Of a stretch of 64,000 nt of DNA, positions 17,155 through 32,518 are shown one piece after another. This DNA is from Candidatus Thorarchaeota archaeon (GTDB lineage Archaea > Asgardarchaeota > Thorarchaeia > Thorarchaeales > Thorarchaeaceae). A program made the translations under genes and the position numbers. The first letter of the stretch is position 1; each line of letters starts with the position of its first letter. The stretch lies in the NCBI GenBank assembly GCA_963726195.1, contig CAVSBO010000016.1, positions 1-64,000 of the forward strand. The letters are read 5' to 3'. Below the pieces are notes generated by a model. That model ran no database searches, was not told where the DNA came from, and saw nothing but the letters and a program-made list of their open reading frames with translations.

Positions 17155-17820
17155 ATGCAGTCAAAGACGAGCATCTATGCCATAAGGACAACCATCAGTC
17201 AAGAAAGGTCTGTCGCAGATCTGATTACGACAGCCGTGACAGGAGAGACTGACCTGTGGCAGTGCCCGTACTGCGGTGAACAATTCTCTTCAGAGAAGAG
17301 CACAACGAAGCACATGGAAAGCTGCAGCAAGGCTGGTAAGAAAAAAGGTGAGGCCAAGCTGGTGTCCAAGAACCAGTTGCTAGGCAGAGTCATGGCAATA
17401 CTTGTGCCAGAGACCCTCCGTGGTTATGTCTTCCTTGAAACAATGGAGTTCAGGGACGTTGAAATAGCGATATCCGGTGTGCCACATGTCCGAGGACGTG
17501 TGGGAGGAAAAGTTAGTTTAGATGAAATTGATAAGTTCCTTGCTCCGCCGCCAGCCGCTGAGGGCATCTCAATCGGAGATGTGGTCGAGATCATATCAGG
17601 ACCGTTCAAGGGCGAGAGAGCAAAGGTTTCGAGAGTGGATACATCTAAAGAAGAACTCATACTCGAACTACTTGATAGCCCGCACACTATTCCTTTGAGA
17701 GTTCATGCAGACTTCGCCAAGATTGTTGAGAAAGGCAAGGCAGTCGGAGAGATAGCGCCGGGTGAGAAAGGTGAGGCCCCTCGTCCAGAAGAGGAAGAAG
17801 ACTCTTTCTGGTCACATTGA
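17155..17820 (+). CDS. spt5: Transcription elongation factor Spt5 (NusG) with an inserted CxxC..HxxxC zinc finger
   Basis: NGN domain (YAIRTT..QE, LRGYVFLE) and KOW domain (GDVVEIISGPFKGERAKV). Confidence 0.93.
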   Translation: MQSKTSIYAIRTTISQERSVADLITTAVTGETDLWQCPYCGEQFSSEKSTTKHMESCSKAGKKKGEAKLVSKNQLLGRVMAILVPETLRGYVFLETMEFRDVEIAISGVPHVRGRVGGKVSLDEIDKFLAPPPAAEGISIGDVVEIISGPFKGERAKVSRVDTSKEELILELLDSPHTIPLRVHADFAKIVEKGKAVGEIAPGEKGEAPRPEEEEDSFWSH

Positions 17821-20315: not shown

Positions 20316-20618
20316 ATGGAGTACGTATACACAGCACTTCTTCTCCACAAAGCAGGTCAGCCAATCAATGAGAAGAACATGGATGCCGTTCTTACAGCAG
20401 CAGGTGTGAAGACGGATAAGTCCAGAGTGAAGGCTCTGCTCGCAGCACTCGAGGGCGTAGACATCGACGAAGCCCTAAAGAGCGCCGCCGTGGCTGTCGC
20501 AGCCCCGGCTGCTGCACCAGCTGCAGCTGGACGACCCGCAGCTGGAGAGAAGAAAGAAGAGAAAGAGGAAAAGAAGGAAGAAGAGTTCACTGCAGGTCTT
20601 GGAAGTCTATTCGGTTAG
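20316..20618 (+). CDS. rpl12: 50S ribosomal protein L12 (aP1)
   Basis: [18 protein letters not shown]. Confidence 0.96.
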
Positions 20619-20661
20619 AACAACATCGCTGCTCCGCACTCTTTCCTCTAGATTCACCAAG

Positions 20662-20704
20662 GACAGACAGGTCGCGAGCCTGCCTGTCTGATGCTATCTT
20701 TTAT
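20662..20704 (+). terminator. Possible terminator after the ribosomal protein operon
   Basis: GACAGACAGG..CCTGCCTGTC imperfect hairpin followed by TCTTTTA. Confidence 0.35.
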
Positions 20705-20791
20705 CTGCAAGCGCCAGTGTTCTCCTAGATACTCGTCTCGACTAATGGACAGGTCGGATGTTCAAGTCATGCACAGTTGAGATGTTGAGCC

Positions 20792-21628
20792 TTGAAGATC
20801 ATCTTCCATCCGCTCATGAGGGAATCCTATGACGATACACCAGCTGGGGCGCCGGGAAGACTTGATTCAGCCATCAGCGTTTTTCGTGGCCATCCCGGGT
20901 ATCAACTGATAACTCCTGAAGCCGCGTCCGAGAGCGACATCCTCCAGGCACACTCTTCGGCCGTTATTGAACGCGTCAGAGAGAGAAGTTTGACATCTCA
21001 AGGCGGCGAACTCTACAGGACAGCGGCTCTTGCCGTAGGCGGGGCCATTCTGGCTGCAAGCATAGCGGTCAAGGGAGAACCGTCATTCGGTTTGATTCGA
21101 CCTCCCGGCCATCATGCATCGCGCAACAGTCATTGGGGCTTCTGCTACTTCAACAACATGGCAATCGCTCTGCTGCATCTCCTGTCCCAAGGTCTAATCA
21201 GCTCTGCATTCATTCTTGATTTTGACCTGCACTTCGGAGACGGAACGGTCGATATTCTTGGCGGAGATAGAAGAGTGATCATCTACAACCCGCAGGGGCA
21301 AGGCGATGGCAATTACCTATCTGATGTCAAGCTTGCTCTCGACAATAGCCCCGATGTTGACATAATCGGTGCTTCAGCGGGCTTTGATGAGTATGAGCAT
21401 TGTTGGGGCCACAATCTGACGACTGATGCGTTCAGGCGCATAGGATGGTTGGTCTTCGAATTCGCGCGGGAGCGGTGTGACGGACGACGCTTTGGTCTAT
21501 TGGAAGGAGGATACAATCATGAGGACCTCGGGAAGAATATTCTTGCTTTTTGTGACGGACTGCAGGGCACATCCAAGATAGGAGGGCTGCTGCAGGGTAT
21601 TGAGACATCGTTGGATAGGCCGCTATGA
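20792..21628 (+). CDS. Histone deacetylase / AcuC family Zn hydrolase
   Basis: RPPGHHA, GFCYFNN, DFDLHFGDGT, SAGFD and LEGGY motifs. Confidence 0.92.
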   Translation: MKIIFHPLMRESYDDTPAGAPGRLDSAISVFRGHPGYQLITPEAASESDILQAHSSAVIERVRERSLTSQGGELYRTAALAVGGAILAASIAVKGEPSFGLIRPPGHHASRNSHWGFCYFNNMAIALLHLLSQGLISSAFILDFDLHFGDGTVDILGGDRRVIIYNPQGQGDGNYLSDVKLALDNSPDVDIIGASAGFDEYEHCWGHNLTTDAFRRIGWLVFEFARERCDGRRFGLLEGGYNHEDLGKNILAFCDGLQGTSKIGGLLQGIETSLDRPL

Positions 21629-21688
21629 TTGAGGGACAGCGGCTGTCGGCCTTACGTATACAGTATCTGGTGCTGCGACCGTTCTCTC

Positions 21689-24600
21689 TCATCCCTCCTC
21701 TGGGACCGGCAGGCCCGCCTTGTCTAGCAGAGCCATGGTGTCTCGGGTGGCTTCCAAGAGATCATCCTTCACAACGCCTTGTTTCTTGAGATTGGCACTG
21801 ACTTCTTCTAACAAGCCTTCATAGTTAGCTCCAGTGAGACCTTTCTCCCACCTCACTGTCATGAGCTCTACAACTTTCGCGTTTTTCCTATCATGGACCG
21901 GAACCAATGTGACTTGCACGCGATATTCTATGACCATCTTCCGCCTGCCAACGATTACCTTGGCTGACACGTACGCCATTTGACCTTCTTCTTCTCCAAC
22001 AGGGCTCTTCTTTTCCTCCTCACCTGAGTAAGAGCCCGGCCCCTCAGCCGAGTCATAGCTTTCCTCCTCCAACTCCGAAAGCAGCTCCACAAGTCGGGAG
22101 TCTGATATGTCGTCAGGAGCTCCAAGCCCGACCACGTTCTTGACATTGACTTGCACAGGATGTACCAGACCTGACCTGACATCGATGAGCTGCTCGCAGT
22201 CTGTCAGGAGAGCCACATCCCGGACATTCATCATTCTCTTCTCTAGGCCCTTCAAGTCAGACTCCTCGTCGAGACCATCAATGGTGACCCTGAGATGTCT
22301 GAAGTCTTGGTCACTTCGTTCTCTATTCCACGGCAGGACTCTGATTGTCACCCGCTCCCCCATCTCAAGGGTGAACAGCTGAGCCGCATTGTATGGGAAC
22401 ATATAATCTCGGTCAAAGAACCGACTGCGATGAACAAGAGGCCTGAGGAATGACAGCCTGATGTCCACCTCACCCCTTCGAGTTGGTACTGTTGCAACAC
22501 CGTAATCGATATCCTTTAGATGGTCCCAAGTGAGGACTGCTCCGTCCTTTGTGACCACCTGTTGTTTGCCTGTGATGGGCGACCTCAGCACGGACACGAT
22601 TTCAAGGGTGTCTGCACTCTCAAATCGCTCGCGTGTCTCACGGCTGGGCAGCACAGGATCGCGAAATGTAATCACATACGCTCTCTTCCTAGTGTCCAAT
22701 GAGACCTCACACTTCACATTCTTGACTTCGACATTCCACTCTGCAATCTTCTTGAGAGGGCCTAGTAGCCGCGACACCGACTCTGAAGACGGTGCGTCAA
22801 CAGGTGTGTTCTCAGATACGCCCAGCGAGGTCTTCAGGTCCAATTGTGATATCTTCAGCCATGGTATGGTTGCGACTCCTTCTCGTTCGTTGATTTGATA
22901 CTCGAGTCGTCCCAGAAGCATCCAGCCGCGGGCGCCTTCCTCGGGTCGCTGCCAGAGTATTTCGGATTTGCCCACGGTGGTCACGGCCAAGCGCATCTGA
23001 ATGTCGTCGGTGCTCTTGTGAAGAATGTCCTCAGCAGCCTCAGACATCTGTGCAGGATTGGTCGAACATCGATACCAGCCTGTGCCCAGCCTGCCACCGG
23101 GACTCTCTAACAACCCGCATACAACCCTCCCATCATCTGTTTTGAACAGGAGCCAGCAGGAAGACTCCTCCTCACCAACAACTATCCCCTCTCTATACTG
23201 ATACGCCTGAGGCCTCCTCGGTGTGGCCTGTGATTCTTCTTTCTGAGATACGAGGTTCGTCGTGCGGAAGAGCAGGTTGCCATAGATTGACGCGAAGTCG
23301 TATCTGGAACAAGCCATGTATGGCGGCCTATCTGCGGGCTTGAAGCCCATCTGATATAGCTCCCACTCTGCAACCGCTCTCCATAGAGCGAGTATCCCCA
23401 GATCGACGGGGTCATCCACGATTCTCGTGATGGCAACGATTGCGGCAAGGAACAGGTTGTTGCCATATAGTGTCAACAGATCAGGGTCACGAGAGATCGC
23501 TTGTTGAACCGCGGCACGGTTCTCAAGACTCAGAACGTCGCCAAGGGTGTTTCGCTCTTGCTCTATAAGAGCCCATGCACCCCGTCGTCTCGTGTTCCCG
23601 AGAATCATATCGCGAATCTTGAGCAAAGCCTCAAGATACAGTGGACCATCTTTCGGACCTTCAAGCGCGGAAAGGCAGCAAGCAACTATGTCTTCGAACA
23701 GGATCTCCAAATCTTCGCCGGGGTCGAGTCGGTGCTTGAGATAGTTGGCCGCATGCATCAGTCGTCTGACTTCACGCCTTCGAGTTGAGTCGGAGTCGAT
23801 TCTCTGAGACATGGTCACAGCATAGAGTGGAGGCCGCCGGATGATGCGCTTCCTTTTGAGGTTCTCCTTGTCCGTCTTTCTGATTCTGTGCTGCCATCCG
23901 CGTGTTATCCGCTCCGGGTCCGTGTATCTCAGCTTGGACCGCCCGGGCTCAGGAGGGGGATGACAAGGCTGGAGATGCAATCTATCACTAAGGGTTGGAG
24001 ACGAGGCGTCTGTGACCATCACGGAAACCATGGTCATTGATGGCTGTTTGGCGTCCGGTATGACTTGTTGTTCTTCCTTGTTTCTTGATCTGAGGAGGCT
24101 GGGAGCGAGACCCATCGCTTTCTCTTGAATGTCCTTGATTGTCTCACCAGAAAGCTGCTGCATATCGGCTTGGATAGAAGAAAGCCGGACAGACCGACCG
24201 TACATGTCTTCGTCTGTCAGAAGACTGGACCTGACTTCATATTCCTGGATTGTCACTTCCCTGTTCGATAGACCTCTGAACTTCTGCGGCCAGTGTCTTA
24301 ACATAGGCACATCAATTACCGTTGACCAGAGAGGTGCTGAAGTGGCAGTGTCCTGAATGATTACCCTCTTGTCGTCAAACCATGGTGCCTGCCATCCGAA
24401 TCCCTTTGGCGGCAAGGGCATGTTCCATAATATCTCCCCGAGACGAAGCCTGCGGAGTGAATCTGCCTCTAGCGGATGCACGCATGGTCTCTGGTAAACC
24501 AAGTTCATCTTTGTGTGCTGAATTCCACTGTCAACCCATAAGACTTCGTTATCTTCTGTGACAAGCTTCTCCACGAGAAGCTGTTCAAGGGCTCTGAGTC

Positions 24601-26815
24601 TCTGCCTTTCAGAACCGTGGACCATTTGGCGGAGTTCGCTCCATCCATCAATGACGACGATGAATCGGGAGCCGGGCTGCCGTGATTGCCCGATACTGGT
24701 CAGCTCCCGTGCTATGTCTGGATCAGCCCTGCCTGCAAGGTACTCTCGCACCGTATTTCCCATGTCACGAAAATCGACTTCATCTAGAATCTGTCTAAGT
24801 GTAGCTAGAAGCGGCCCCTTCTTGCTGTCGATGTTCTCCAGTCGAAGGGCATGTCTGCGAGACCCTTCAGGAAAAGAGCTGGTCAAATCCAGCCAGACCA
24901 CACCAGCGACGTCCCGGTCTCTTTCGCGCAGTTCTTGGATATGGTTGAGCAAATGCCAGTTCTTGGAGTGCCATGCAGCGGCTCTTCCTCCGGATGTTGC
25001 TGATGCGACAGGTATGTAGAGCGTCAGATTCCGCTGATGCTCGGTACTGCCTTTGAACGGGTCCTCTATGAAGATGGAGTCTGGAAATGTGGTCCGACTG
25101 AGCAAGTGGGACGGCCCCTCGGAAGGTGACATCAGCAATGCGACTCTCGGACTCCTGTCAAAGAGGTCTTTCATGCTTATCGAAGACCATCTTCCCTTTC
25201 CTGATGGTAAATGACGAAGCTGCACGAGGTTCTGAAGGAGAGCAGAGAAGGCTTCGAAGGTCTCTTGGTATCGTTGTGAGCTGTCAATCACTATGACACC
25301 TTTCCACAGAGAGACTGGCGGCGAATGATCTTCAGGAACCAGCCGTCGGTACTCCTCTATTAGCCCTCGTTCATAGAGCTCTAGCTGTCGCAGGTTGCTC
25401 TGCGGCGGTTCTGACGAGACGATGCTCTCCCACTCTTTCTCTGAAAGGGAGACCTTCCAAGGGCAAAGGGCTGGCACAAACGCGTTCATCATCTTGGTTC
25501 GTGGTCTTATGCCGTAGAGTGCAAAATCGAAGGAGCTTCTCGTCTTTATCTCCAGAACCATCACAGGAGTCCAGACTATTCGGGGGCCCACTTTTCTCCT
25601 CAGAAACAGGACAATGTCGGCCTGCCCCTGATTTTCAGAATCTTTCATTGACACTTCGGCCAAGAACTGTCTATCGGAGACAGTCTCAAGCATCGAGTCA
25701 CCGCTCAAAACAGCATCGATGAGAGAGCAGTGATGCAGGCCTGATAGAAGCACCCTGTGCCAGTCATTACCCTCCTGTTTAATTAGAGCGACTATGTGCT
25801 CCCTGAGCCGCCTCACGTCCTTCTCGGTGAGAATCTCTTGGTCCATACTGTCAAGTATGCGCTCGCACGCCTTCCGAATCTCAGGGTCTTCGGTGCTCTG
25901 GAGTAGTCCAAGGGCCTTCTCTCTGAGCGCAGCGATACTCACACTCGGAGTTCCCTCTTGCTGAGCCATCTCAGATGTCCTACGACCCTGTCCAGCTCTT
26001 CTGCCGTAAGTGGACCGTATCTCGAGGACAAGATGCCTGAGTTCCTTTTCACCGTCGGGACAGAAGTTCTTGCGACCTGTCTTTCCTCCCGTGTAGACCC
26101 AGTCGAGGAAAGGCGTCAACCGAGCAACCAAGAGTCGGATGTACCTATGAGCATCATCGCGAGGCACGTTGTAGATAAACAACTGACGAGACAGCTCGAC
26201 CAGATGCGCCCGGATCATGTCCACGAAATCCATTTCTGGAAGAGTTGGGTGTGCTAGCAACACCCGCGGGGCTCTCGATGTCCCTGGGTATCCTGCCTTC
26301 CAGTATCTCTTTACTGAGCCGTCAGTGGGAAACTTGGATACAACGGATGCTGCGAGAACCTTCTTGGAGCCATCTGGGTACACTCTCACCTGATAGCGGT
26401 GGGGTGTTGGAAAGGAATAGCGGGTAGCGGCTAGGTCTCTAAGCCTTGCTCCAAGGTAGTTCAGAAGGCCGTTAAGCGGGCCAACAGAACCCTGTCTCCA
26501 ATTGTAGACCCGTTTGAATTCGCGGTTTCCGTAGCGTTTCGTGCTGTACCAGAGGAACTTGAGATGAAGCTGTCGAAGACTGTGCTCTATGGCCGCGATT
26601 CGTGACACGATTGCAGATGCTCCGTAGTGCGTCGTGGGGAGCATTTCGCCCAGTTTGGTAGATGCTTCAGACCAACACTGTGCTATCGAGTCGACGTACT
26701 TCATCACAGCGGAATTGGAGCGACACCTTGTCAGTCTGACTATGGCGGCTAGGCCCATTGACAATGAATCTCTCAAGACCTCACTTGGTGTAACATCGGT
26801 TTCACGCTTGGACAC
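21689..26815 (-). CDS. Giant (1708 aa) uncharacterised protein with a PD-(D/E)xK nuclease domain and a degenerate RecA/KaiC-like NTPase domain
   Basis: Uninterrupted 5.1-kb ORF. Nuclease-like E..GQADIVL..VLEIKT..QLELY; NTPase-like ASATSGGRAA, VVWLDL, FIVVIDGWSEL. TTATAA box 24-29 nt upstream. Confidence 0.75.
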   Translation of the reverse strand: MSKRETDVTPSEVLRDSLSMGLAAIVRLTRCRSNSAVMKYVDSIAQCWSEASTKLGEMLPTTHYGASAIVSRIAAIEHSLRQLHLKFLWYSTKRYGNREFKRVYNWRQGSVGPLNGLLNYLGARLRDLAATRYSFPTPHRYQVRVYPDGSKKVLAASVVSKFPTDGSVKRYWKAGYPGTSRAPRVLLAHPTLPEMDFVDMIRAHLVELSRQLFIYNVPRDDAHRYIRLLVARLTPFLDWVYTGGKTGRKNFCPDGEKELRHLVLEIRSTYGRRAGQGRRTSEMAQQEGTPSVSIAALREKALGLLQSTEDPEIRKACERILDSMDQEILTEKDVRRLREHIVALIKQEGNDWHRVLLSGLHHCSLIDAVLSGDSMLETVSDRQFLAEVSMKDSENQGQADIVLFLRRKVGPRIVWTPVMVLEIKTRSSFDFALYGIRPRTKMMNAFVPALCPWKVSLSEKEWESIVSSEPPQSNLRQLELYERGLIEEYRRLVPEDHSPPVSLWKGVIVIDSSQRYQETFEAFSALLQNLVQLRHLPSGKGRWSSISMKDLFDRSPRVALLMSPSEGPSHLLSRTTFPDSIFIEDPFKGSTEHQRNLTLYIPVASATSGGRAAAWHSKNWHLLNHIQELRERDRDVAGVVWLDLTSSFPEGSRRHALRLENIDSKKGPLLATLRQILDEVDFRDMGNTVREYLAGRADPDIARELTSIGQSRQPGSRFIVVIDGWSELRQMVHGSERQRLRALEQLLVEKLVTEDNEVLWVDSGIQHTKMNLVYQRPCVHPLEADSLRRLRLGEILWNMPLPPKGFGWQAPWFDDKRVIIQDTATSAPLWSTVIDVPMLRHWPQKFRGLSNREVTIQEYEVRSSLLTDEDMYGRSVRLSSIQADMQQLSGETIKDIQEKAMGLAPSLLRSRNKEEQQVIPDAKQPSMTMVSVMVTDASSPTLSDRLHLQPCHPPPEPGRSKLRYTDPERITRGWQHRIRKTDKENLKRKRIIRRPPLYAVTMSQRIDSDSTRRREVRRLMHAANYLKHRLDPGEDLEILFEDIVACCLSALEGPKDGPLYLEALLKIRDMILGNTRRRGAWALIEQERNTLGDVLSLENRAAVQQAISRDPDLLTLYGNNLFLAAIVAITRIVDDPVDLGILALWRAVAEWELYQMGFKPADRPPYMACSRYDFASIYGNLLFRTTNLVSQKEESQATPRRPQAYQYREGIVVGEEESSCWLLFKTDDGRVVCGLLESPGGRLGTGWYRCSTNPAQMSEAAEDILHKSTDDIQMRLAVTTVGKSEILWQRPEEGARGWMLLGRLEYQINEREGVATIPWLKISQLDLKTSLGVSENTPVDAPSSESVSRLLGPLKKIAEWNVEVKNVKCEVSLDTRKRAYVITFRDPVLPSRETRERFESADTLEIVSVLRSPITGKQQVVTKDGAVLTWDHLKDIDYGVATVPTRRGEVDIRLSFLRPLVHRSRFFDRDYMFPYNAAQLFTLEMGERVTIRVLPWNRERSDQDFRHLRVTIDGLDEESDLKGLEKRMMNVRDVALLTDCEQLIDVRSGLVHPVQVNVKNVVGLGAPDDISDSRLVELLSELEEESYDSAEGPGSYSGEEEKKSPVGEEEGQMAYVSAKVIVGRRKMVIEYRVQVTLVPVHDRKNAKVVELMTVRWEKGLTGANYEGLLEEVSANLKKQGVVKDDLLEATRDTMALLDKAGLPVPEEG

Positions 26816-26838
26816 GATAGTGCTAGCGCCTGTTGAAC

Positions 26839-26844
26839 TTATAA
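26839..26844. promoter_or_regulatory. Palindromic TATA box (TTATAA), potentially bidirectional
   Basis: Spacing fits leaderless transcription of the giant gene; the box faces the intergenic region before the Cas12-like gene. Confidence 0.5.
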
Positions 26845-27052
26845 GGAGCTTGTGACTTTATGGCTAGACATCCAAGGAATATGACAGGCAGTAATGGCAA
26901 GGATGGTAAGCATAAGTCTCCATTATTCAACTTGGATGATAAATATGATTGGTGCTCCTTATATGGACCGGAAAAGACAGACATGTTGAGGAACTGCCGT
27001 GAAACGACCTGTCCAGCGCCACCCCCGGACGCAACAGAACATGCATATAACA

Positions 27053-29167
27053 ATGGGCGGCAAATATGATTGTGCTCACGGTCCAAGATATCTTGTCGAG
27101 TCCTTCACTCTGTGTTCTGAAAGTTACACGCCCTCGCGCAAAGGTCTTGGAAAGCGGCCAGACCCAGCCTTCAGCAGAAGGAGCGCCTTTCTCCCAAACG
27201 CGCCCACCTCTTCTCAGAGAACACTACGTACCTTATTCGTCGGCTTCGGCAGGAAGATCGGAGACCTCGAGTTAGTCACCATAGGCAGTCACCTCGACAG
27301 GTATGTGAAAGCAGTCAATCTTGCACTTGACCGGGTCTATTCTGATTCTGCGAGAGCAAAGAGGCTAGGTGAAGAGCTGAGCAACTACAGAGGGCAGGGC
27401 TATACCTTGCTGAAGAAGGAACGGGATCTCTCTTACCAGCACAACGAACAATTCAGACAGCTTGTGTTCGAAAGACTTCATAGGAACGCGCTGGAACAGG
27501 CTGCCCGGACGATTCAGGCTGACCACACTCGACGAAGGCTTGTGGAATCTGCCCTCTCTCTTCTGGATGCCTCGATTACTGACCAGCTCCGCCTGCTCAG
27601 GAACAGATACATTCCAGCGGACCTGATACGAAAGGTGAGAGACTCCTGTGAGGGTGCAAAGAACAATGGTACAGGGTATCACTATGCCTTGGGTGCCCTT
27701 AGGCAAGTCAGGAGGGCTCTTGACGAGCACATTCTCTCCTCACTTGCTCAGCCCCTTGGGTCGAGATCGGCGCAGAGGAAGCGGGTCGCTGACCACCTGC
27801 AGACCAACTCTCCCGAGTTCGGGCAAGTGACATCGCTCGTAGCTGAGCAAGTCGGTCGCTGGCACAAGGAGGGCTATCCCTTTACAGTCCCTCAGCTCAG
27901 AAAGTGGAGCATTGACTACTCAGCATCGACAGAGAACAGCATCGGGCAGGGTTATTGGTTCACAATCGACAACGATAGGGAGAATGAGGTTCTTCTCCAC
28001 ATCAAGCTCCCTCCCGGACTCGATGGGACACCCAGCGACCGTTCTCCATATGGCACTCAGACTCTGACCTTCAGGTTCCTCGACTGGCTCCCTCGTGCTG
28101 CCGCAGACGCCGGTATTAGAGCGGTGGCAGCCGAGAAGGAGGGAAGAATCGCTCGTGCAACACAGCTGAGGTTTAGGGCAGCGAAGCTTCAGGACCAACA
28201 CCAACAGCTCATGAACACCATTCGAGTCCAGCACGTAGCCTACGCGCTCTCACGACTCAGACAGAAGAGAGACTCCGACCCCGAAGAGGTGGCGAGGCTC
28301 GAGACCGACATGAAGAGCTTGAAGTCCTCAAGGAGAAGTGCTCCGCCCCGCCTGCTTCTGAGAGGCCACCGCGTCACACTCCAGATCCCCTTCCTTTCTC
28401 CTGATAGAAGAATCCTGCTGCAGGTCTTGGGACAAAAGGAGTACACTGCGCTAGCCGGCGTCGATAGGGGTGTCAGAGTCCCCGTTACCCTGTCAGTTCA
28501 ACAGGATGACAACTACGTGGACGAGCTGCTCAGAGTGGAGTATCTGCTGGAGAAAAGGGAGAGGCTCAGAGAACAGGCCTCGCTGCTCAGATCCGAAGTG
28601 GACAGGAGAAGGAACAACTGGGACAGGAAACGGCTGGGGCTGTCGCGTCCCGCCTTCCTGTTGAAGAAGGAAAGGCATCAGGATGCTGTCTGGCAGAAGG
28701 TGTGTCGCCTCGACCGTGAAGTATCCCGGTTGCTCGCTTCGCACACTGTCTGGTTCTGTGAAGAGTACGGTGTAAAGACCGTTTACTTCGAAGACCTGAG
28801 GAACTACCAGACCCCGGGTGGTCAAGGAGCCCTGTCGTGGAAGCTCTCCACCAACCTGTGGGGAGAGGTTATCGACACAGTCCGGTACATGCGAGAGGCC
28901 CTTGGTCACAGTCCGTACAGTGTGTGGACAGTGAACCCCGCCTACACCAGCCAGACATGCCACGTATGCAGACAGAAAGGCATACGTGTCGATAGTTGCA
29001 GGTCAAAGGCGGAACAGAAAGGCGGAGAGTACTTCTACTGTCCAAACTGCGACTCACACATTCATGCGGACATCAATGCTGCACGAAACATAATTCATGT
29101 CCAGAGACCCAGTGCCGTTCCTGGGAGGACAAAGAACGTATGTCCAACTTTGTCCAACTTACAATGA
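27053..29167 (+). CDS. Large (~704 aa) TnpB/Cas12-like RuvC nuclease
   Basis: RuvC-I LAGVDRG, RuvC-II YFEDL, zinc finger NPAYTSQTCHVC..CPNC, RuvC-III HADINAARNI. About 300 aa longer than the three TnpBs in this window. Start uncertain (26999, 27041 or 27053). Confidence 0.88.
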   Translation: MGGKYDCAHGPRYLVESFTLCSESYTPSRKGLGKRPDPAFSRRSAFLPNAPTSSQRTLRTLFVGFGRKIGDLELVTIGSHLDRYVKAVNLALDRVYSDSARAKRLGEELSNYRGQGYTLLKKERDLSYQHNEQFRQLVFERLHRNALEQAARTIQADHTRRRLVESALSLLDASITDQLRLLRNRYIPADLIRKVRDSCEGAKNNGTGYHYALGALRQVRRALDEHILSSLAQPLGSRSAQRKRVADHLQTNSPEFGQVTSLVAEQVGRWHKEGYPFTVPQLRKWSIDYSASTENSIGQGYWFTIDNDRENEVLLHIKLPPGLDGTPSDRSPYGTQTLTFRFLDWLPRAAADAGIRAVAAEKEGRIARATQLRFRAAKLQDQHQQLMNTIRVQHVAYALSRLRQKRDSDPEEVARLETDMKSLKSSRRSAPPRLLLRGHRVTLQIPFLSPDRRILLQVLGQKEYTALAGVDRGVRVPVTLSVQQDDNYVDELLRVEYLLEKRERLREQASLLRSEVDRRRNNWDRKRLGLSRPAFLLKKERHQDAVWQKVCRLDREVSRLLASHTVWFCEEYGVKTVYFEDLRNYQTPGGQGALSWKLSTNLWGEVIDTVRYMREALGHSPYSVWTVNPAYTSQTCHVCRQKGIRVDSCRSKAEQKGGEYFYCPNCDSHIHADINAARNIIHVQRPSAVPGRTKNVCPTLSNLQ

Positions 29168-29262
29168 ACGATGTATGAGCCAAGCACCGATGACAAGAAA
29201 CGATTGGGACTGTCTTCAGGAGTTTATATCGCATTTGCACGCACGAGTCTTAGGATGACATC

Positions 29263-29514
29263 GTGCCGCTATTGCAGATTCTAAGCCCACTAACAGATTT
29301 CATCGGCGTAATCGCAGGCTACTTGGCAGACGTGTGGAGCTTCGTTGTATTCGTAGGCTCGGTCTCTTCGGTAATCGTGATTCTTGTGGGAGCAATACTC
29401 TGGTTCACCGATGTAAACCAAATGAGGGGAAAGGCACTCGTCCTTAGTGGAATAATCTTGGCCGTTGTCGTGCAGTACTTCATCATGTATCCACCCAACT
29501 TTCTGCTTGGATAG
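29263..29514 (+). CDS. Small two-TM membrane protein, TrbC/VirB2 pilin-like
   Basis: Amphipathic helix, TM, short basic linker (NQMRGKA), TM; TTTATA box upstream. Confidence 0.55.
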   Translation: MPLLQILSPLTDFIGVIAGYLADVWSFVVFVGSVSSVIVILVGAILWFTDVNQMRGKALVLSGIILAVVVQYFIMYPPNFLLG

Positions 29515-29648
29515 AAGCAATGAGTGATAGCTCAACCCCGAGCTGACAGGTCACCGTGAGAGCAATGCACTGCTGTGCACCGAAGTGTCTATAAGAAATG
29601 TCTATGGGGAGAAGTCTGCGTCAGTCTCGGCGAGCCGAGATTGGTCGT

Positions 29649-29758
29649 GGGCCCGTTGCCCAGCCAGGACAGGGCGCTAGCCCTCTATAGGCCATGTCTT
29701 CAGACAGGCTTCGTTGGAAAGCTAGAAGTCGCGAGTTCAAATCTCGCCGGGCCCGCCA
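29649..29758 (+). tRNA. tRNA-Arg(TCT) with a 32-nt intron at 37/38 (29688-29719); atypical C33
   Basis: Acceptor GGGCCCG/CGGGCCC-G-CCA, Arg-type D loop, CTAGC/GCTAG anticodon stem, TTCAAAT T loop. Confidence 0.8.
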
Positions 29759-29800
29759 CGACTCATTCTTGTTAATTCGTCTTTGGTGATGCTGCCACGC

Positions 29801-31525
29801 TCAACTCGACTGGAAAGACAAACACCTCTTGAACCAGTCAGGTAGCTCCATTGAAAGACGCTCTTCCATATGCTGCACGTCATGCCACGGTCCACCACTT
29901 TTCATGCTCGCAGCTCTTTTATCCCCAATTCCCGGCACTGCCTTCCATTGGGCTAGACTGGCATGATTGGGCATGAACGGATAGGGCAGAACGGTAACAG
30001 ATCTTGGTCCGTGGTCCACGACGAATACATCTGCTGCCTCGGATACTTCCTGCACCATTGGCATGTGACAAAGCAAAGGATAGGTAGCTAGCGGGCGAAG
30101 TAACTGAAGATTTCCCTCACGTTGTTCCGGGTATGCAGAATGGATGATTGTGCCAAAGGGAGCTACTCTTGCAATCATCACTTGATCGATTTGTTCTCTG
30201 ATTTCGTTTTTGTGTCGGATGAAATCATTGTGCTTCAGGCGCCCCTTCTCGGCCCGTGAGATTGGGGTGTCAGGAAACCTAATCACCTGTCTGATGTTGA
30301 TTCTCCTCACTACTAGACCCTCGGCTACCAGTTCCTGCAAGAACTCCATGTTGTACTCCAACGTCCGATTGCTCTCGCCCGGAAGACCGTAGAGCAGGTT
30401 AATTCCAGGAAGCAGGTGTGGAAGCTCCCAGTCTGGTCTCTGGCCGCCCACTTCATTCAGAATTCTAATCGCGGTCATGGCCTCGTCACTAGTAACCTTC
30501 AGGTTGTTCCGCCTCTTCACTTCGGGATCCAACGATTCGATACCGAACGCGGCGACATCTCCAACCGTATGGTACTTCATGATAATGCGGGTCACCTCCT
30601 TACTTTCCTCAGGATGTTCCGCAATCGTTCCCGGATTCACATTGTCGATATGCAGTACCTGCAGCTTTGGAGCAACGGCACGTATTCCAGAGAAGAGAGC
30701 CTCGATGACATGTGGGGCAGGAGTAGGAAACTCGGCCTCTCCCATTTCGCTGGAACCGTAGGTAAACAGATCTGCCTGTCTGCCGATTCGGAATGCCCTC
30801 ACGCCGTGGTTGTAGAGTGCCTCAATCTCTTTTACAATATCCTCGGGCTCACGTTGTGCTGGCAGTCCATAGAGGGGTTCAACACAGAAGGAACACCCAC
30901 CTGTTATGTAACGAGGACACCCTCTGTAGGTTTCGATTTCGCAGATGAGATAGCCTTTCGAGTGACCGGGATGTTGGTCTACAATTGCGCTTCCTCTAAC
31001 TGCGTATTCAGTGATGTCTTGAGGGCTGCTTCTGCTCTCGGCCAGATTGACAGCTGAGAAGTCCCAACCGTTTTCTACAGCCCTGCCGATTACTATCTCA
31101 GCGTCTCCTCGGACAATGTAATCGAATGGAGGAGACAGGACATCTGAGCCCAGAGCAAGCCTTCCGCCCTGCAGCCCGCAACCAAATCGTGCCCATGGGC
31201 CGACCAAGAGCTTTGGGACGTTGATCAATTCGGGTGCTGAGAACAACTCTCTTGCTTCCCTGACGGAGATTGGAGTCCCGCCGATGTACTTGCCCGGTAC
31301 GATCATTCCGGCAATCAGTATCACCGCTCCTGCATGAACCCAAGTGGAACGGATTTCGTCTTTGGCTTCTCGCAGCTGATCGATAGTCTGGTAGAGAATC
31401 TGGGTATGAGGAGACTGCGTCCATATCGCTCCTGCTATGTATCGGGGGTACGGACTGATGTAGGGCGGGACGCCTAGGCACGTGGGCTCATCGACATAGC
31501 CATCTACCATGACAATACGGTCCAG
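29801..31525 (-). CDS. Archaeal radical SAM protein with C-terminal helix-hairpin-helix (in frame with thiL in this sequence)
   Basis: DGYVDEPTCLGVPPYISPYPRY, ETYRGC..GGCSFC and VPGIGDKRA motifs. Confidence 0.85.
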   Translation of the reverse strand: MDRIVMVDGYVDEPTCLGVPPYISPYPRYIAGAIWTQSPHTQILYQTIDQLREAKDEIRSTWVHAGAVILIAGMIVPGKYIGGTPISVREARELFSAPELINVPKLLVGPWARFGCGLQGGRLALGSDVLSPPFDYIVRGDAEIVIGRAVENGWDFSAVNLAESRSSPQDITEYAVRGSAIVDQHPGHSKGYLICEIETYRGCPRYITGGCSFCVEPLYGLPAQREPEDIVKEIEALYNHGVRAFRIGRQADLFTYGSSEMGEAEFPTPAPHVIEALFSGIRAVAPKLQVLHIDNVNPGTIAEHPEESKEVTRIIMKYHTVGDVAAFGIESLDPEVKRRNNLKVTSDEAMTAIRILNEVGGQRPDWELPHLLPGINLLYGLPGESNRTLEYNMEFLQELVAEGLVVRRINIRQVIRFPDTPISRAEKGRLKHNDFIRHKNEIREQIDQVMIARVAPFGTIIHSAYPEQREGNLQLLRPLATYPLLCHMPMVQEVSEAADVFVVDHGPRSVTVLPYPFMPNHASLAQWKAVPGIGDKRAASMKSGGPWHDVQHMEERLSMELPDWFKRCLSFQSS

Positions 31526-31526
31526 C

Positions 31527-32518
31527 TCACTCCACTCCCTGAAGTCATCATAACCCTTCATTGGGATGGGAACGGGGCCCTTCGGGCTCTTCCAAGTCAC
31601 ACCGCTGCCATCTTGTGCGCGGCCAATCGGAATGAGCTCGGCATGGGTTCGTCTGGCGACAGATAGTGCCTTCTCCAATTTGTCTGCGGGCAGAGTAAGC
31701 ACCATACGAAACTCTTCTCCGCCGCGCATTATCAAATCGAGAAGACCGATGCTGTGCGCTTCTGCAAACTCAGTGACACCCTGCGCTACCGGAAGCTGGT
31801 CGATGTTGAACGCAAGATGAGAGTGAGAAGCCATTGTGTTAAGCGTGATTCCAAGGCCGTCGCTACTGTCCATTGATGCGGTGATTGCCCCTTCCCTCGC
31901 AAGCATTGGGACTAGGGTCAGGTCGAGTTCAGGCTTGTACGCCGCCGCGAGTGCTATCTCCCTCAGAGGATTTGGTGCTTCCAGGCCACCTAGTAGTATC
32001 TTGAACGCGACGGATGTTAACCCAAATGGCCCAGTTACTGCAATGATGTCGCCTTTCTTCGCTCCACCTCTCGGCACAATTCCGTTATGAGGTGCAGTGC
32101 CTAGTCCGACGCCAGTAAGAACGGTTCCGCAGGAGACGCCCATGTCACCACCAACGAAACTCATTGCACATTGTGTGCAGTACTGAGAGAAACCCCGAAT
32201 CATGTCCCGAACACCAGCTGCATCGCGGTCTCCCGGAACGCACAGCGACAGCATGCTTGCAACTGGAGTTGCACCTTTGGCTACGAGATCACTGATTACC
32301 ATGACCGCGGTCTTCCTCCCGACTTGAGCCTCCGTCATGCCAGGTAACCAATCGGACCCACTATTGAAAGCATCAACCTTGACAACCATGTGTGTTCCGC
32401 CGGGGAGAGGTATGTCTGATGCGTCATCATCAAATTCAAGTCGTGCGCCCTTTACTTGCTTGACCATGCTTGCTATACTCGCAAGAAAATCGCGCTCACC
32501 CACATCACGGATTGTCAA
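31527..32518 (-). CDS. thiL: Thiamine-monophosphate kinase
   Basis: GERDF, DDA, SDLVAKG, VGGD, MDSSDGL and GGEEF motifs. Confidence 0.9.

Follow-up and report, generated by a model that had tools for sequence, protein, structure and literature searches.

A divergent pair of a giant, predicted Cas1-fold protein and an enlarged TnpB within an IS607-type mobile element of Thorarchaeota

Gene content of the locus

The window analyzed here is a 64,000-nucleotide (nt) stretch of Candidatus Thorarchaeota contig CAVSBO010000016.1 (assembly GCA_963726195.1; positions 1 to 64,000, forward strand). The locus under study lies within positions 21,689 to 29,514 and consists of two divergent genes: an open reading frame (ORF) of 1708 amino acids (aa), termed the giant (21689-26815, minus strand), and a tnpB gene ending at 29167 on the plus strand. 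Both are carried by a mobile element of ~7.6 kb (~21568-29170). The tnpB ORF spans 722 aa from GTG 26999 or 704 aa from ATG 27053. Because homologues reach ~20 aa upstream of Met 27053, the GTG is most likely the start, leaving a gap of 183 bp to the giant. An earlier sequence-only reading had recognized both ORFs and their head-to-head arrangement, which stands; its lengths (~704 aa for TnpB, ~240 bp for the gap) are revised, and its single palindromic box shared by both genes was ruled out by the presence of two TATA-like boxes, one per gene (Table 1).

The flanking genes, namely a histone-deacetylase-family (HDAC) gene, a pilin-like gene, and a tRNA-Arg gene, were present as first described. 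No CRISPR array was found in 20500-30500, and no cas2, tnpA, or serine recombinase was found in the interval of the two genes, in agreement with the sequence-only reading. Its further statement that cas1 was missing was wrong in substance: canonical Cas1 had no match in the genome (PF01867), but the N-terminus of the giant has a predicted Cas1 fold. Three more TnpBs occur elsewhere in the window, also as stated before. The GC content of the region was not atypical.

Table 1. Features of the element and its surroundings, in window positions.
Feature	Position	Strand	Basis or remarks
Host histone-deacetylase-family (HDAC) gene	20792-21567	+	Pfam PF00850; stop codon gone at left junction
Inner left-end remnant	21568-21688		~45 nt of outer left end (AGGG...TTGGACA twice) and ~28 nt of host DNA gone
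Second, degenerate Cas1-like helical domain of the giant, aa ~997-1179	23279-23827	-	weak VIA match
RecA/KaiC-fold domain of the giant, aa 593-840	24296-25039	-	Foldseek RAD51/RadA E 1e-4; VIA Z up to 11.5
PD-(D/E)xK motif set of the giant, Cas4/RecB type, aa ~380-510	25286-25678	-	E387, GxxD400, (E/D)422xK424, Q477xxxY481
Cas1 catalytic helical domain of the giant (predicted), aa 5-257	26045-26803	-	E77, N115/N119, H189, D196, D199, R202
TATA-like box, giant gene	26838-26845	-	sequence; ~25 nt before giant; function inferred
TATA-like box, tnpB	26958-26965	+	sequence; similar box in mini-copies; function inferred
Large TnpB, type A, 722 aa	26999-29167	+	RuvC D489/E598/D691, 4-Cys zinc finger
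Right end and predicted omega-RNA 3' scaffold	29108-29170	+	hairpin, TGTCCAAC twice, terminal AATGAACG
Predicted guide source, host flank right past the right end	29171-29190	+	from IS607 TnpB biology (10.1101/2023.11.20.567912)
Host 83-aa membrane/pilin-like gene, outside the element	29263-29514	+	occurs at the empty site in G002
tRNA-Arg(TCT), intron-containing	29649-29758	+	host gene, outside the element

Copies, ends, and empty sites of the element

Genomes are labeled G (G000, the window genome; G001-G003, three genomes of the same genus), contigs C, and loci L. A BLAST search of the locus against its own genome recovered a sibling copy on C8 with 87.6% identity over 7,626 nt, from ~21557 to exactly 29170. 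The same search returned other copies, broken or partial, and 16 short matches to the last 63 nt. These short matches proved to be mini-elements, 187-191 bp long and complete at both ends, of which the genome holds ~17; congener genomes gave ~15-30 matches to mini-elements. The ORFs of the C8 copy contained 11 single-base indels, reflecting either decay or assembly error, and the other copies on C8, C3, C13, and C16 of G000 mostly showed scattered single-base frameshifts, for which error and real decay are likewise the two explanations.

In G001-G003 the right-flank sequence came directly after the HDAC gene, giving an empty site, which identifies the 83-aa gene and tRNA-Arg as belonging to the host. 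The 83-aa gene was rejected as a part of the module, being found at the empty site, and tRNA-Arg was rejected as the insertion target, being unaltered at the empty site and ~480 bp outside the element. The HDAC ORF now continues into the element as far as 21628, and relatives stop one to two codons past LQG; the insertion is read as having taken away the HDAC stop codon.

Left ends of the element open with AGGG and contain two copies of TTGGACA; right ends contain two copies of TGTCCAA and close with AATGAACG. The base next after the right end was G in 20 of 23 copies. No matches to such ends were found in shuffled sequence. The repeats near the ends are inverted between left and right, and the termini themselves differ. 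In G002, the site corresponding to two mini-elements and to one full copy on C3 was empty and read AAGGGT, while the filled junctions read AG[GG]...AAC[GG]T. Comparison of filled and empty sites thus indicates scarless insertion, with a GG core in AGGG shared and no target duplication.

The complete C3 copy (G000:C3:854969-863117; 8,149 nt) consisted of left end, tnpA, giant, tnpB, and right end. Its TnpA was an IS607 serine transposase with an N-terminal helix-turn-helix (HTH), scoring 172.5 bits against NF033518 (cut-off 110); that of L076 scored 173.6 bits. Solo elements made of left end, tnpB, and right end, without the giant, were found at L089 and L090, and at L105 and L106 with tnpA fragments. 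The ends of the giant-tnpB element are classed as IS607-type. The sequence-only reading had seen no HUH-type end hairpins and no serine recombinase; the comparison of copies and relatives instead gave defined ends, a site empty in three congeners, and a serine recombinase in a sister copy of the same genome. With its IS607-type ends, its GG core, and the IS607 TnpA of sister copies, the element thus fits the second case that the sequence-only reading had named as counting against it, a known family with its own ends. A crude pattern search of the genome gave no match to a Y1 transposase and was too coarse to show absence.

Several copies deviated from this pattern. At L088 (670-690 and 9289-9305), ~13 nt of the left-end start recur right after the right end, as a tandem or circle-junction remnant or, alternatively, an unusual duplication. 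Five type-A loci (L071, L072, L081, L082, L083) had a right flank resembling a tRNA 5' fragment beside an intact tRNA gene, with right-end repeats degenerate or missing, and are possibly a tRNA-targeting sub-lineage. A type-B giant-TnpB element, L114 (G000:C16:216164-223445), lies just upstream of a tRNA gene; its site was empty in G001-G003, with diverged flanks.

Distribution and partners of the giant

The Cas1 domain of the giant was detected in 43 of 76 genomes of the window's family and in 3 of 11 genomes of one other Asgard family; it was not found in the other families sampled. Several giant copies per genome were common. Named homologues were almost all from Ca. Thorarchaeota, with a few labeled Loki- or Promethearchaeota. 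In total, 46 giant loci were collected, of which 44 were classifiable, and all 44 had a TnpB neighbor: type A (720 aa) in 21 and type B (580 aa) in 23. The two genes were divergent in all loci with orientation listed. This count rules out adjacency in the window genome alone, and chance adjacency was rejected. The conserved, divergent two-gene module within a mobile element that the sequence-only reading had suggested was thus borne out by these loci, by the sibling copies, and by the empty sites.

A quick IQ-TREE phylogeny of the giant (first 1250 aa, duplicate loci omitted) showed at least five switches of TnpB type, forced by well-supported branches, from which it follows that the giant swapped its TnpB partner repeatedly. 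The Cas1 and nuclease residues of the giant were intact with either TnpB type. Among type-A giant loci, tnpA or a remnant of it was present in 8 of 21, spread over four branches.

Domains of the giant protein

AlphaFold models of the giant were confident, with a mean predicted local distance difference test (pLDDT) score of 88.8 for aa 1-915 and 88.7 for aa 935-1608. Searches by sequence against Pfam, NCBIfam, PADLOC, PDB sequences, and the ESM Atlas gave no match, and the relationship of the window giant to Cas1 was visible by structure, not by sequence search; a distant homologue, P0201, matched a Cas1 hidden Markov model at 1.8e-5. In the model, the first ~260 aa adopt the Cas1 catalytic fold: aa 5-257 matched Cas1 structures in VIA with Z 12.7 (8flj) and 12.3 (4n06), and casposase 6opm with Z 10.6. 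Only the helical half of Cas1 is represented, the domain aligning to Cas1 residues ~80-115 onward. Among 97 diverse giant homologues, E77, H189, D196, D199, and R202 were kept in 92-95 and N119 in 76. Residues E77, H189, and D199 are presumed, by motif, to be the Cas1 catalytic triad.

Conservation was complete in the PD-(D/E)xK motif set, where D400, K424, Q477, and Y481 occurred in 97/97 homologues and position 422 was acidic in 97/97. This region had no Pfam match and, with the structure-match lists taken up by other domains, no fold match was obtained; it is a putative nuclease, so named from its motifs only. In the RecA-fold domain the Walker A lysine was not conserved, position 611 varying among the 97 homologues, and the domain is probably a pseudo-ATPase. 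The original description of the giant as a PD-(D/E)xK nuclease with a pseudo-NTPase is in line with these two regions, but it missed the Cas1 catalytic domain.

Cas1 or casposase filled eight of the nine top VIA rows for aa 997-1179, yet weakly (Z 5.1-6.2). The beta-rich domains that follow had no clear match. A Foldseek search with the C-terminal model returned nothing at E<=0.001, and the ESM Atlas shape search returned mostly RecA/FtsK folds. Frames of ~430-520 aa that matched the C-terminal beta-rich part alone (aa ~1216-1700) were present in four genomes (G004:C28:16160-17500, G019:C57:7844-9046, G024:C231, and G007:C12) and are perhaps stand-alone genes.

Between the window copy and the C8 sibling, the ratio of nonsynonymous to synonymous substitution rates (dN/dS) was 0.26 overall for the giant (0.16-0.29 across domains) and 0.18 overall for tnpB (0.14-0.20 across domains), a comparison that indicates purifying selection on both genes. 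Selection on the giant would also be expected of a toxin, addiction, or defense nuclease cargo that the TnpB ribonucleoprotein sets off or holds in check, and defense proteins commonly combine an intact PD-(D/E)xK nuclease, here recognized by motif, with an NTPase-like fold. Nevertheless, such a cargo is judged very unlikely: the giant lacked a PADLOC match, the invariant Cas1 integrase residues would be left unexplained, and dispersed multicopy elements with mini-copies act like selfish DNA. The defense system considered in the sequence-only reading accordingly found no support.

TnpB, the right end, and the predicted omega-RNA

The window TnpB matched PF07282 at 6e-14, as a TnpB/Cas12f-like nuclease. 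It fell below every curated TnpB/Cas12 cut-off, with 61 bits versus 100 for NF040570 and 28.4 bits versus 350 for the IS607-type NF038280, and is classed as an enlarged, divergent TnpB. The RuvC D-E-D residues and the four Cys were invariant in 15 homologues, in keeping with the RuvC nuclease first proposed.

The right-end sequence was common to ~23 places in the genome. Two right-end hairpins were conserved in the mini-copies; the mini-copy alignment yielded three hairpins with little covariation (-0.86 kcal/mol), and the last 230 nt of tnpB folded no better than shuffles (z -1.35). The predicted guide, searched behind GG with <=3 mismatches, had no genome match besides its own position. In the mini-elements L116-L125 of G000, a TATA-like box is present and one more conserved hairpin precedes the right end, so that each could supply TnpB in trans with a guide RNA read from its own flank.

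Relation to described systems

Section 9 of PMC10691335 (Altae-Tran et al. 2023) describes aCas1-associated TnpBs in two repeat-flanked Asgard groups (Cas1H-Asgard-1/-2), with aCas1 replacing the Y1 or serine recombinase and proposed as the likely transposase. A GTTCACTCA motif downstream of tnpB is reported there, with a hypervariable stretch suggested to be possibly spacer-like; whether the motif belongs to one group or to both is not stated in the paper. In the present set, GTTCACTCA was found within one mismatch after a short hypervariable stretch (~6-13 nt) at 14 of 15 type-B loci, and since these belong to the same giant family, that family is tied to the published aCas1. The window pair therefore appears to match the aCas1-TnpB kind of Asgard archaea, which had already been catalogued by computation; it had been taken for an undescribed system. 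The type A of the window is presumably the other published TnpB group.

Features shared with the account in section 9 were an Asgard-restricted, diverged Cas1 beside TnpB, two TnpB groups, and flanking repeats. The type-A elements here differ in their IS607 ends and in the IS607 tnpA that they often carry in cis, and the TnpB type of the window lacks GTTCACTCA. The four-domain anatomy of the giant, the exact ends, the AGGG target, the mini-copies, and the partner switching are absent from the main text of PMC10691335. In the literature searched, the IS607 form of aCas1-TnpB is not described and no bench tests of aCas1-TnpB elements were found. The window locus is a real and intact, though probably stranded, copy of a known Asgard element kind.

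The motif bears on a further explanation of the giant, as a guide-writing, adaptation-like enzyme whose Cas1 and Cas4-like domains would capture short DNA and alter the omega-RNA guide or hypervariable segment. Cas1 with a Cas4-like nuclease is the adaptation pair, and type-B loci have the hypervariable stretch before GTTCACTCA. However, the motif is absent from the window copy, and type-A right ends, including that of the window, run directly into host DNA with no variable slot; there is no array and no Cas2, and the variable stretch measures a mere ~6-13 nt. The chance that the giant writes guides, and so represents CRISPR adaptation in a minimal ancestral or analogous form, is considered small.

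The pattern described for IS607 is a GG core with no target duplication (PMC6188088), and classic IS607 is said to have no terminal inverted repeats. The target and transposon-adjacent motif of IS607 is TGGG, and its omega-RNA ends in UCGG (10.1101/2023.11.20.567912). Compared with the IS607 family (IS607, IS1535, CboIStron), the present elements had in common a serine TnpA with N-terminal HTH, the GG core without target duplication, short direct repeats near the ends, an NGGG target, and a predicted omega-RNA ending in ...CGG. They differed in length (7.6-8.1 kb), in a Cas1 fusion of 1.4-1.9 kaa between tnpA and tnpB, in the 722-aa TnpB (NF038280 28 bits versus cut-off 350), in end repeats that are mutually inverted, and in a target of AGGG instead of TGGG.

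A Cas1-fold enzyme on a mobile element is shared with casposons (casposase 6opm, Z 10.6). In contrast to casposons, no PolB and no target duplication were seen here, and the giant joins only the helical half of Cas1 to its nuclease and RecA-fold domains and has TnpB as its partner. No ORF for a family-B DNA polymerase was present between the ends of the window copy, and the C3 copy was filled by tnpA, giant, and tnpB. With CRISPR type V systems (Cas12f/Cas12g) that carry Cas1-Cas4, the locus shares a RuvC effector and predicted Cas1/Cas4-like activities in one locus; it differs in having no array, no Cas2, an effector under all Cas12 cut-offs, and a guide expected from the flank.

Movement of the element and role of the giant

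The reading judged reasonably probable is that the locus belongs to an IS607-family RNA-guided transposon of Thorarchaeota in which movement falls to TnpA and the guarding of empty sites to TnpB, with the giant kept by selection as an accessory. Four steps are envisaged. The mobile unit inserts scarlessly at the GG core in AGGG, as the comparison of filled and empty sites shows. An IS607 serine transposase, acting in cis or in trans, would excise and insert the element, as suggested by IS607 biology and by the cis tnpA of sister copies. TnpB with an omega-RNA ending in ...AACGG would then cut empty AGGG-adjacent sites, and repair would restore or spread the element; the homing or retention role that the sequence-only reading gave to TnpB is, from IS607 biology, the most likely one. 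Lastly, and with least certainty, the giant may be dispensable for movement and act as a selected TnpB partner that processes the TnpB break, with Cas4/RecB-like trimming, DNA binding by the RecA fold, and Cas1-type strand transfer biasing repair to insertion of the element. This action is suggested because giant-less derivatives share the ends, the giant is never without TnpB, and both active sites are kept. The solo elements and the ~17 mini-elements appear to move without a giant of their own.

Four points weigh against this scheme. No tnpA was found in 13 of 21 type-A and 23 of 23 type-B giant loci within the ~1.5-2.5 kb of flank fetched. The end repeats are inverted, and classic IS607 reportedly has no terminal inverted repeats. 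The right junction of the window copy reads GA instead of GG. In principle the giant, and not TnpA, could act in trans to move the mini-copies.

The first of these points leads to the alternative that the giant is itself the transposase. With no tnpA near type-B loci, it could be the transposase of type B, and the alternative is most plausible there. The predicted Cas1 fold is near that of a casposase (Z 10.6) with catalytic residues intact, tnpA was seen at 0 of 23 type-B loci, and several copies lie beside tRNA genes, tRNA-adjacent insertion being a known casposon habit. For type A, by contrast, the junctions share a 2-bp GG core and lack a target duplication, which is the signature of a serine recombinase, and casposases produce target duplications. 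The same ends also occur on giant-less solo and mini-elements, and the giant holds the Cas1 helical half alone. A casposase-like giant, as proposed in PMC10691335, with the type-A IS607 ends and tnpA as a later graft and with both routes possibly working, is on balance regarded as unlikely. The giant as mobilizer, one of the roles first suggested for it, is doubtful for elements with type-A TnpB, given their IS607 ends and the IS607 TnpA of sister copies.

The guess in section 9 of PMC10691335 that aCas1 is the transposase is called into question by this locus family, at least for the large-TnpB group. The family also supplies precisely defined ends, a target (AGGG with its GG core), a guide prediction, individual residues of the giant to aim at, and, within the window genome, an autonomous copy that carries IS607 TnpA. 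The role of a Cas1 enzyme tied to TnpB bears on the origin of CRISPR adaptation and of type V systems, and the 722-aa TnpB is a candidate programmable nuclease.

History of the window copy

Lacking tnpA, the window copy is non-autonomous. Three sibling copies (two on C8, one on C15) keep the outer left end (~45 nt) before the inner sequence that starts at 21568 in the window, and ~28 nt of host DNA are missing in comparison with the empty site of G002. The left junction falls within TGCAGG, which is common to the host and the inner left end. At the right junction, host ATGAA is in register with the right end, and other targets likewise resemble the right end. Judged against a relative of 80% identity, the simplest history would be that the element inserted ~28 nt beyond the end of HDAC and that a single microhomology deletion came afterwards. 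Both of its ORFs are intact, but TnpA can probably not move the copy any more, which would leave it stranded.

The junctions also touch on a quite unlikely possibility, namely that the giant is a single-chain machine, composed of Cas1, Cas4-like nuclease, RecA fold, and a pseudo-Cas1 internal dimer partner, that integrates DNA at a break made by TnpB and omega-RNA. The window copy could be such a guided-integration event, since both of its junctions show in-register microhomology to the empty site beside AGGG; a normal insertion and one deletion account for them more simply. If true, integration would be RNA-guided and independent of TnpA, and the pair would be the compact equivalent, in two genes, of a CRISPR-associated transposon, with a giant that has passed repeatedly from one type of TnpB vehicle to the other. 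A giant that integrates DNA at TnpB cuts would amount to a compact guided integrase.

Other observations in the window

The intron of tRNA-Arg(TCT) (29649-29758) follows position 37, and neither ARAGORN nor Rfam at the gathering threshold reported the gene. Beyond it, a 905-aa ORF (29801-32518, minus strand) joins a ThiL/AIRS-like kinase domain to a radical-SAM/helix-hairpin-helix protein, either as a genuine fusion or through loss of a stop codon. At 17245-17375 (plus strand), the N-terminal domain of the Spt5/NusG gene product contains an insertion resembling a zinc finger (CxxC...H...C).

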